Assembly: GCA_016188915.1 (NCBI GenBank)
Contig: JACPGU010000001.1
Coordinates: 123,106 to 187,105 of the forward strand
Reading direction: 5' to 3'
From: Candidatus Microgenomates bacterium
GTDB taxonomy: Bacteria > Patescibacteriota > JACPGU01
Length of the DNA: 64,000 bases
This document shows, piece after piece, positions 37,083 to 37,597 of the stretch. Position numbers and translations under genes: made by a program. Every line of letters begins with the position of its first letter. Positions within the stretch are counted from its first letter, which is position 1. Under the pieces are notes generated by a model. It was not told the DNA's origin. It searched no databases and saw only the letters and a list, made by a program, of their open reading frames with translations.

Positions 37083-37170
37083 TTGAAGCTCAAGGGGGCG
37101 CTGCGCTCTTGATTACTTTAGAGGGAACACGGCAAAGCCGTGAGCTGAAGGACTATTTAAGGGGGAAATA
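37083..37170. repeat. about 90-bp direct repeat, copy 1 (contains CACGGCAAAGCCGTGAG hairpin and AAGGGGGAAAT)
   Basis: High identity to copy 2 at 37507-37597. Confidence 0.65.
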
Positions 37171-37358
37171 AAACGAGAGCCTGATCAGGGCTCTGTGTGT
37201 GGTTAACGACCAAAAGCAAAAGGTCTATTTATCTATGATATTCAAAAGATCAAGAATTTTATTTGCTGGAAGAAAGAAATAAATCTTTCCTAAAAATGCA
37301 AAGAGGATCCCTAAGGACCCTCAAGCTTTAGAATTCATGATCATTGCTGATCAAGAGC

Positions 37359-37387
37359 ATTGTAGCACAGCCAGTAAAAAATGTCAA
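37359..37387 (-). promoter_or_regulatory. sigma70-like promoter (minus) TTGACA-17-TACAAT inside the segment bounded by the direct repeats
   Basis: Plus tgtcaa 37382-37387 and attgta 37359-37364. A minus-strand terminator hairpin AGAGCC-TGATCA-GGGCTCT lies at about 37178-37200. Confidence 0.45.
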
Positions 37388-37506
37388 TATTAGTTTATAA
37401 AGCCAAATTTCATGGCTTTATTTTTATTGTTTTGCGTTTCTAAAATATTTTATCCACAAAGGCAAAAAATGCAAAAAGAGCTCTTAAATAAAGGTAAAGT
37501 TTGTTT

Positions 37507-37597
37507 TTTGAAACTCAAGGGGACGCCACGCTCTTGATTGCTTTTTTTTGGGGGGGCACGGCAAAGCCGTGAGATGGAGGACTATTTAAGGGGGAAA
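37507..37597. repeat. about 90-bp direct repeat, copy 2
   Basis: See copy 1. Confidence 0.65.

Follow-up and report, generated by a model that had tools for sequence, protein, structure and literature searches.

Two direct repeats of about 90 bp in the genome of a Candidatus Microgenomates bacterium (contig JACPGU010000001.1, positions 123,106 to 187,105) resemble the cassette boundaries of arrays that we found beside tyrosine recombinase genes in related metagenome contigs. In the 64,000-nucleotide (nt) stretch that we analysed, hereafter called the window, the repeats R1 (37081-37170) and R2 (37506-37598) are probably two fossil cassette junctions around a cassette without an open reading frame (ORF), immobile since the recombination cores are gone. 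We put the probability of this reading at about 65%. Each repeat consists of two modules, A and B, and at both window junctions A is directly joined to B. In the arrays, these modules are separated by an attC-like folded core.

The window repeats are fusions of two modules

Consistent with the initial annotation of this DNA, which had described direct repeats of about 90 bp and about 85% identity, R1 and R2 aligned with 85% identity over 61 nt and 87% identity over 39 nt. An nhmmer profile of R1 and R2 found just these two copies in the window (E = 7e-31 and 7e-29; next match, E = 0.07). The 17-mer CACGGCAAAGCCGTGAG occurs exactly twice in the window against an expectation of 0.11, and AAGGGGGAAAT was found in both repeats. 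The two copies, which lie 425-429 bp apart, differ by a single 4-nt indel in a T/G homopolymer run, at the point where the two halves of the repeat meet.

Scanning metagenomes with a degenerate 26-mer yielded seven Joint Genome Institute (JGI) contigs, L020-L026; all relatives discussed here are metagenome contigs, selected for carrying the motif. Profile and BLAST comparison showed that the repeat is a fusion of module A (its 5' half) and module B (its 3' half), which occur separately in these contigs. Upstream of R2, homology continues into a further module, A-ext. The modules in the window are as follows.

37081-37116, plus strand: module A, copy 1; 97% identical to L023:1188-1226 and 92% identical to L024:1213-1175.
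37117-37170, plus strand: module B, copy 1, with a hairpin at 37128-37142 and the invariant tail TGAAGGACTATTTAAGG; 85-92% identical to copies in L020-L026, L037 and L038.
37459-37505, plus strand: A-ext, with the palindrome AAGAGCTCTT; extends the homology of R2 by about 47 nt leftward.
37506-37541, plus strand: module A, copy 2; defined by repeat alignment and by BLAST to the array contigs.
37542-37598, plus strand: module B, copy 2, with a hairpin at 37557-37571; 95% identical to copies in L020-L024 and L038.

Taken together, positions 37459-37545 are 90-91% identical to L023:1141-1227 and L024:1260-1174. For module A of R1, identity to L023 (97%) exceeds identity to R2 (87%); likewise, module B of R2 resembles the array copies (95%) more than it does module B of R1. 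This pattern argues against a recent local tandem duplication, an origin that the presence of just two copies, 425-429 bp apart, might otherwise suggest; R1 and R2 share 85-87% identity, less than the values of up to 97% seen against copies in unrelated contigs. Chance similarity does not fit the 17-mer count. An assembly error, raised in the initial annotation as a possible source of the repeats, does not account for them either, because the locus is base-for-base the same in two independent Logan assemblies (SRR12113420 and SRR12113422), making three identical assemblies in all. We therefore regard duplication, chance and artefact as refuted.

The repeats also proved not to be a known riboswitch or tRNA-like element. 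No Rfam family matched the repeat or the bracketed segment: at the gathering threshold, Rfam reported only a tRNA at 33649 in the whole window, which was also the sole tRNA found there by ARAGORN; at E <= 10, positions 36900-37800 gave nothing credible; and the seven related contigs gave nothing relevant to the repeats. Scanning GTDB representative genomes with the 18-mer AGGACTATTTAAGGGGGA returned eight chance hits only, blastn against plasmids and phages gave no match to the locus, and two scans of viral contigs gave only chance coding hits or nothing.

We considered and rejected a reading of the repeats as peptide-coding sequence, in which one frame gives FEAQGG..., a possible double-glycine peptide beside a C39 peptidase. 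One of the seven substitutions between R1 and R2 is synonymous, the indel breaks the frame, and among related copies of the repeat the nucleotides are kept while start and stop codons vary.

Module B shows signs of constraint at the level of structure. Across 17 copies, its hairpin occurs as CACGGC/GCCGTG, CGCAGC/GCTGCG, CGTAGC/GCTACG and a shifted CGCGG/CCGCG, with 95% pairing and 13 double-change cells, a covariation value that none of 500 shuffles reached; the tail TGAAGGACTATTTAAGG is invariant in all 17. It is possible on these grounds that B, with its hairpin and tail, is a cis-acting signal recognised by a protein or an RNA, which would act on a nearby promoter or terminator independently of recombination. 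An outward -35 box often follows B at a distance of 8-30 nt (in window R2, L020/L023, L024, L026 and L037), and L037 also carries a B without a core. However, about half of the B copies precede the terminator of a convergent gene, not a promoter, R1 has no plus-strand promoter downstream, and covariation itself speaks against a sequence-specific duplex operator. No candidate binding partner was identified. We consider a recombination-independent signal unlikely. B is also unlikely to be an independent small RNA (sRNA) gene, because no convincing promoter reads into its leader.

Related contigs carry cassette arrays with attC-like cores

The array contigs contain co-oriented, modular non-coding elements of 400-550 nt, about one per gap between small, mostly unannotated genes. 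The usual order within an element is an outward promoter, a hairpin (H1), A-ext, A, a loop hairpin, the core, an AT-rich leader, B and then a terminator or an outward promoter. The core, an attC-like imperfect palindrome of 123-154 nt between A and B, follows the pattern GGGTC-NNNN-AAC-AC-[L arm]...two hairpins...[L arm']-GAGACA-TT-NNNN-CGACAT. In an alignment of 16 cores, the 12-bp L box covaries at four pairs, and AAC and TT are invariant. The core folds as single-stranded DNA at z = -6.0, and a G-T wobble (G25-T111) in 14 of the 16 cores gives a weak hint that the aligned strand is the one that folds. With a covariance model of these 16 cores, we found 27 cores, at 50-135 bits, in nine contigs, and the cores are co-oriented within each contig.

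The 4 nt that follow the TT of one core complement the 4 nt that precede the AAC of the next core in 17 of 18 consecutive pairs, whereas the same complementarity within a single core was seen in 4 of 20 (permutation test, 0/100,000). In integron cassettes, the TTRRRY portion of R' forms part of the following cassette. Complementarity to the neighbouring core, not to the core itself, is thus a signature of integron cassette boundaries. The content of the arrays also differs between otherwise matching loci: L020 and L023 share flanks that are 99.6-100% identical around unrelated inserts of 489 and 1223 nt.

The window modules take defined places in this architecture. In L023 and L024, which carry the A copies most similar to those of the window, the order is A, core, B, with 40-75 nt between A and the AAC box of the core; most B copies lie 80-125 nt past the TT box of a core or past an attI-like site. 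These positions relative to the core identify A as a cassette-end module and B as a cassette-start module. The distance from A to B is 233 nt in L024 and 473 nt in L023.

Array cassette genes occur on both strands and have their own TTGACA-17-TATAAT promoters, which sets them apart from the promoterless, co-oriented cassettes, transcribed from one common Pc promoter, that are expected of an integron. Inverted second copies of A-ext flank minus-oriented cassette genes at L020:285-345, L023:547-599 and L024:1682-1733, forming inverted repeats of about 55 nt around the gene and its promoter. The R' box reads ATT-NNNN in the close arrays and has the canonical form GTTGAGC/GTTAAAC in L043. One core, at L020:1758-1885 (equal to L023:3851-3978), has unlike L arms, CGGTATATCTG on the left and CAGATACTCGG on the right, that pair incompletely. 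This apparent chimera suggests recombination inside cores as well as at R'.

An alternative view of such elements is that they are self-spreading modular repeats of the BOX, BIME or MITE type, that their link to an integrase is coincidental, and that the fused A-B form in the window is a short variant like BOX 'AC'. Their mosaic architecture, with long and short forms and nested insertions, and the strong secondary-structure potential of the modules would fit such an origin. By contrast, independent insertions cannot yield the complementarity between neighbouring cores, and the copies are not dispersed but grouped in co-oriented arrays that lie to one side of an integrase. The window holds only two adjacent copies in 64 kb, and we found no terminal inverted repeats or target-site duplications at the bounds of either the repeat or the long element. 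A self-spreading repeat is, in our judgement, a very improbable explanation.

A tyrosine recombinase and an attI-like site lie at the array edge

Five contigs (L024, L025, L037, L038 and L043) carry a tyrosine recombinase gene at the edge of the array and divergent from it; the integrases of L037 and L038, which were fetched by protein, are homologues with 85-86% identity. Wherever the integrase is present, all cores lie on its divergent side and none beyond. Beside the integrase start, the attI-like motif TTCGCATATACAGTG|TT is conserved, and conservation ends exactly at G|TT. The four bases after this G|TT match the AAC box of the first core. We infer from this arrangement that the cores would be recombined by the adjacent integrase.

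The array integrase, with 278 amino acids (aa), aligns to VchIntIA (2A3V) residues 9-182 and 247-317. Between these segments it is without the IntI-specific additional domain, having 21 residues where VchIntIA has 64. This domain has been described as defining for, and necessary to, integron recombination (PMC9668308). The array integrase scored 228.7 against TIGR02249, under the cut-off of 265, and 244.9 against NF040815 (XerA/integron integrase), over the cut-off of 220; its XerA score was 154 bits.

A more distant example comes from a Moranbacteria metagenome-assembled genome (GCA_029567195.1; L043:5800-9000), in which an integrase of 277 aa, 63% identical, lies beside an array of diverged cores. 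Its cassette genes are all co-oriented and small (NUDIX, DUF218 and cupin). The joint presence of integrase and cores in L043 indicates that the architecture is far from confined to the clade having modules A and B in common.

Contig L040 carries an array-type integrase that is 85% identical to that of L025. The rpoC-like gene of the window has 69% nucleotide identity to the one in L040, whereas the A and B modules of the window are 88-97% identical to array copies. This difference points to one of two causes: cassettes that move horizontally, or modules under very strong constraint. No protein of L020-L026 has a homologue in the window.

The interval between the repeats resembles a cassette without its gene

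The interval between R1 and R2 is 335 nt long, and the unit reads in the order B, terminator, no ORF, promoter P(-), A-ext, A. Scanning the unit and its right edge identified the following signals.

37387 to 37359, minus strand: cassette promoter P(-), TTGACA-17-(TG)cTACAAT, with 11/12 matches plus a TG extension.
37194-37176, minus strand: terminator hairpin AGAGCC-N7-GGCTCT, the minus-strand U-tract of which comes from the A-rich end of module B.
37322-37303, minus strand: nearer terminator-like hairpin, about 30 nt downstream of the P(-) start site.
37397-37421, plus strand: terminator-like hairpin, within an insertion of about 62 nt relative to L023/L024.
37601-37629, plus strand: promoter module P(+), TTTACA-17-TATAAT, just past R2, which serves the next gene.

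The initial annotation had noted a minus-strand TTGACA-17-TACAAT promoter with a terminator downstream and no credible ORF between the repeats, and all three observations held. The promoter and the terminator were recovered at the positions given above, and the ORF search and blastx agreed on the third point. No ORF of more than 27 codons lies wholly inside the interval, and blastx of the 335-nt unit revealed no protein remnant (best E = 0.29), a result on which we rejected the idea of a gene remnant there.

The layout of the unit is that of the minus-oriented cassettes of L023, L024 and L020, where the homologous promoter drives a gene. P(-) is homologous in position and sequence (TAGCACA...TGTCAA) to the promoter beside A-ext in L023 and L024, which there drives protein genes. 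Similarly, P(+) is 88% identical to L021:2154-2120 and 83% identical to L025:13334-13300, where the same module drives unrelated genes. Positions 37382-37459 are 73% identical to L037:8431-8355, and the placement of a terminator after B, for a convergent minus-strand gene, recurs at L025:10207-10221 and L021:2653-2671. No homologue of the segment 37171-37358 turned up in the related loci. In the window, positions 37180-37355 are dense in 6-bp palindromes (GGATCC, AAGCTT, GAATTC, TCATGA and three of TGATCA) and look like a polylinker; this segment has no plasmid match and is native in the three assemblies.

These signals raise the possibility that the unit is an sRNA gene with the repeats as incidental flanks. 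P(-) would then drive transcription as far as 37322-37303, giving about 60 nt, or as far as 37194-37176, giving about 185 nt. The near-consensus promoter with its TG extension, the two terminators downstream and the missing ORF are all in keeping with such a gene, and the predicted 63-nt P(-) transcript folds at z = -3.3. However, the distal 136 nt (37165-37300) fold no better than shuffled sequence (z = -1.6), and an Rfam match is absent even at E <= 10. Unlike the promoter and the repeats, the transcribed segment is without a homologue in the related contigs, and the same promoter module drives protein genes in the relatives. An sRNA gene is therefore improbable as an explanation of the locus. 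The idea is nonetheless compatible with an ORF-less cassette that encodes an sRNA, and P(-) may still yield a short non-coding transcript.

Both window junctions lack the core

Our preferred explanation, that R1 and R2 are fossil cassette junctions, can be set out as a sequence of proposed events. In related Patescibacteria, an Xer/IntI-like tyrosine recombinase stands beside a cassette array in which attC-like folded cores separate the cassettes, and each cassette tends to open with a conserved leader ending in B and to close with A-ext and A before the next core. In the window, the core and its immediate flanks would have been lost at both junctions, joining A to B, and loss of the cores would have left the cassettes immobile. 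The 335-nt interval would then represent a minus-oriented cassette body, with its own promoter and terminators retained and its gene lost. The window copies appear to come from a former array or from an acquired array fragment, and they are presumably now inert.

Loss of the core is consistent with the sequence at the A/B junction, where the repeats diverge most (TTTAG in R1 and TTTTTTTTG in R2); the divergence could reflect two separate deletions, or slippage in the homopolymer at a later time. An independent orphan B, also without a core, occurs at L037:4853-4923, at the array's distal end, with a gene's stop codon on one side and a promoter on the other. We considered and rejected a simple deletion between the GTT-containing breakpoints of L020/L023, which would leave a leader of about 75-95 nt before B that is absent in the window.

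The initial annotation had offered, as one explanation of the locus, att sites with the remnant of an excised or degraded mobile element. This idea survives in part. The repeats are homologous to the flanks of recombination sites, and the unit between them looks like a gene-less cassette; the repeats themselves are not att sites, and the core is missing.

The absence of a core is borne out by the core covariance model, which, with filters off, gave a best score of 16.3 bits (E = 0.08) over the whole 64 kb. In addition, tblastn found no integrase homologue in the window. Several points weigh against fossil junctions. With neither integrase nor core within 64 kb, ties between the locus and a recombination system of this genome are indirect. 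Both junctions miss the core at nearly the same point, which needs either two similar deletions or the spread of a fused A-B form, and no other A-B short form occurs among the 17 B copies. The B hairpin has been kept by compensatory changes, and the window copies could accordingly be functional rather than fossils. One breakpoint of the cassette swap, immediately before CCGTTGCAC in module A, is not at the R' site of a core. Finally, the relatives are all metagenome contigs, in which recombination by the integrase is read from sequence architecture only.

Neighbouring genes and other features of the window

The genes on either side of the two junctions are as follows.

36547-37080, plus strand: C39-family peptidase gene (Pfam Peptidase_C39, 5e-20), the last gene before junction 1.
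37664-38200, plus strand: ORF of 178 aa with no Pfam family, the first gene past junction 2.

The stop codon of the C39 peptidase gene abuts module A copy 1, which is left-truncated by the gene. Homologues of the peptidase are at most 63% identical and occur in non-syntenic bacterial and archaeal contexts; a synteny search through them found unrelated contexts with no repeat nearby. The 178-aa ORF has only eight homologues, each at most 40% identical. Further along, a 195-aa ORF (38269-38856, minus strand) matches only positions 1-167 of the 347 of the MFS_1 profile. This ORF probably represents a truncated transporter gene, in keeping with a decaying island of accessory genes at about 35-42 kb.

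Further features were observed in the window and the contigs. The tRNA at 33649-33723 (plus strand; Rfam, 55.8 bits) was reported by ARAGORN as 'tRNA-???' with anticodon ccta, has an apparent 8-nt anticodon loop (CUCCUAGA) and precedes a class-I release factor gene (33993-35075) by 270 nt; the loop suggests a four-base anticodon or a CUA suppressor-like tRNA. Positions 35768-35978 contain two copies (81%) of an extended -10 promoter-like box, GCCGTGTGCTAYAAT, followed by ATGCCAAAAAA, with two copies (93%) of TARCCGAGGCAATGTCCGACTTYGCCG between the boxes. This duplication, just upstream of an ORF at 35950-36540, has no homology to the A/B family. Upstream of rpsB, at 33150-33186, a 37-nt A-rich leader (AAAAAAATAAGAAAYTAAAA...) is 92% identical to L025:9089-9125, which lies upstream of queA. 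In L021, a DUF3800-V RNA (758-856, minus strand; Rfam RF02964, 71 bits), unrelated to the A/B family, sits between a 231-aa ORF (53-748) and a 171-aa minus-strand ORF (904-1419).

Implications

The window locus itself, a decayed remnant on the reading given above, would matter little to the cell; as a lead, it suggests that the Candidate Phyla Radiation (CPR) harbours arrays following integron-type site logic. Our literature search, the coverage of which was incomplete, found no description of integrons or of such arrays in CPR/Patescibacteria, and the novelty of CPR cassette arrays is probable. More tentatively, and at somewhat less than even odds, the repeats may be the trace of an undescribed integron-like platform widespread in CPR/Patescibacteria. 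Such a platform would combine a short Xer/IntI-like recombinase that is without the IntI domain, the classical boundary logic and, unlike any known integron, self-promoted cassettes whose B and A adapters enclose differing genes.

The family of the array recombinase has thousands of CPR homologues, currently annotated as Xer recombinases; close homologues of the integrase number about 5,800. If recombination were confirmed, cassette recombination would not need the IntI additional domain, and the array recombinase would stand between Xer recombinases and integron integrases. If the adapters, B at the start and A at the end of a cassette, are what they seem, they could shed light on how integron cassettes arise, a question so far unsolved. 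Such conserved adapters, together with portable promoters, make questions of cassette genesis and expression testable.

Comparison with known systems

Loci in which a promoter and a terminator define an sRNA share with the window unit a near-consensus promoter, intrinsic terminators and the lack of an ORF. They differ in that the transcribed part in the window is unconserved and belongs to no family, and in that its promoter module is portable, driving protein genes elsewhere.

BOX elements of Streptococcus pneumoniae and BIMEs of E. coli are, like the elements described here, intergenic mosaics of hairpin modules with short forms that are without internal modules. By contrast, the array copies are confined to positions beside integrases and show the complementarity between neighbours, and no genome-wide dispersal was seen in the sequences analysed. 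Xer/dif modules, such as the pdif modules of Acinetobacter plasmids and integrative mobile elements exploiting Xer (IMEX), resemble the arrays in having an Xer-like recombinase, and inverted A-ext copies around some array genes recall them. The array sites are long folded palindromes with AAC and TT, not 28-bp dif-like sites with two 11-bp arms, and the arrays are co-oriented.

The window locus, having neither an integrase nor an attC-like core, is not even a cluster of attC sites without an integron integrase (CALIN), for which at least two attC sites are required. The arrays of its relatives are closest to sedentary chromosomal integrons, whose degraded forms are the CALINs. Such integrons, for example those with the VCR sites of Vibrio, differ from the arrays in several respects. 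The array integrase is without the IntI-specific additional domain; R' is ATT-NNNN in the closest arrays rather than GTTRRRY; the cassettes have their own promoters, pointing both ways; and the cassettes share long end modules (a leader with B at one end; H1, A-ext and A at the other), which classical cassettes do not. In both systems, a tyrosine recombinase is divergent from a co-oriented array; the sites are palindromes with an R box, an unpaired spacer, an L box, a variable terminal structure and invariant AAC and TT; R' complements the R'' of the next site; and the attI-like crossover falls at G|TT. The cassette genes of both are small, most of them without annotation; different cassettes occur between identical flanks; and cassettes without an ORF, like the one proposed for the window, are known from integrons too.
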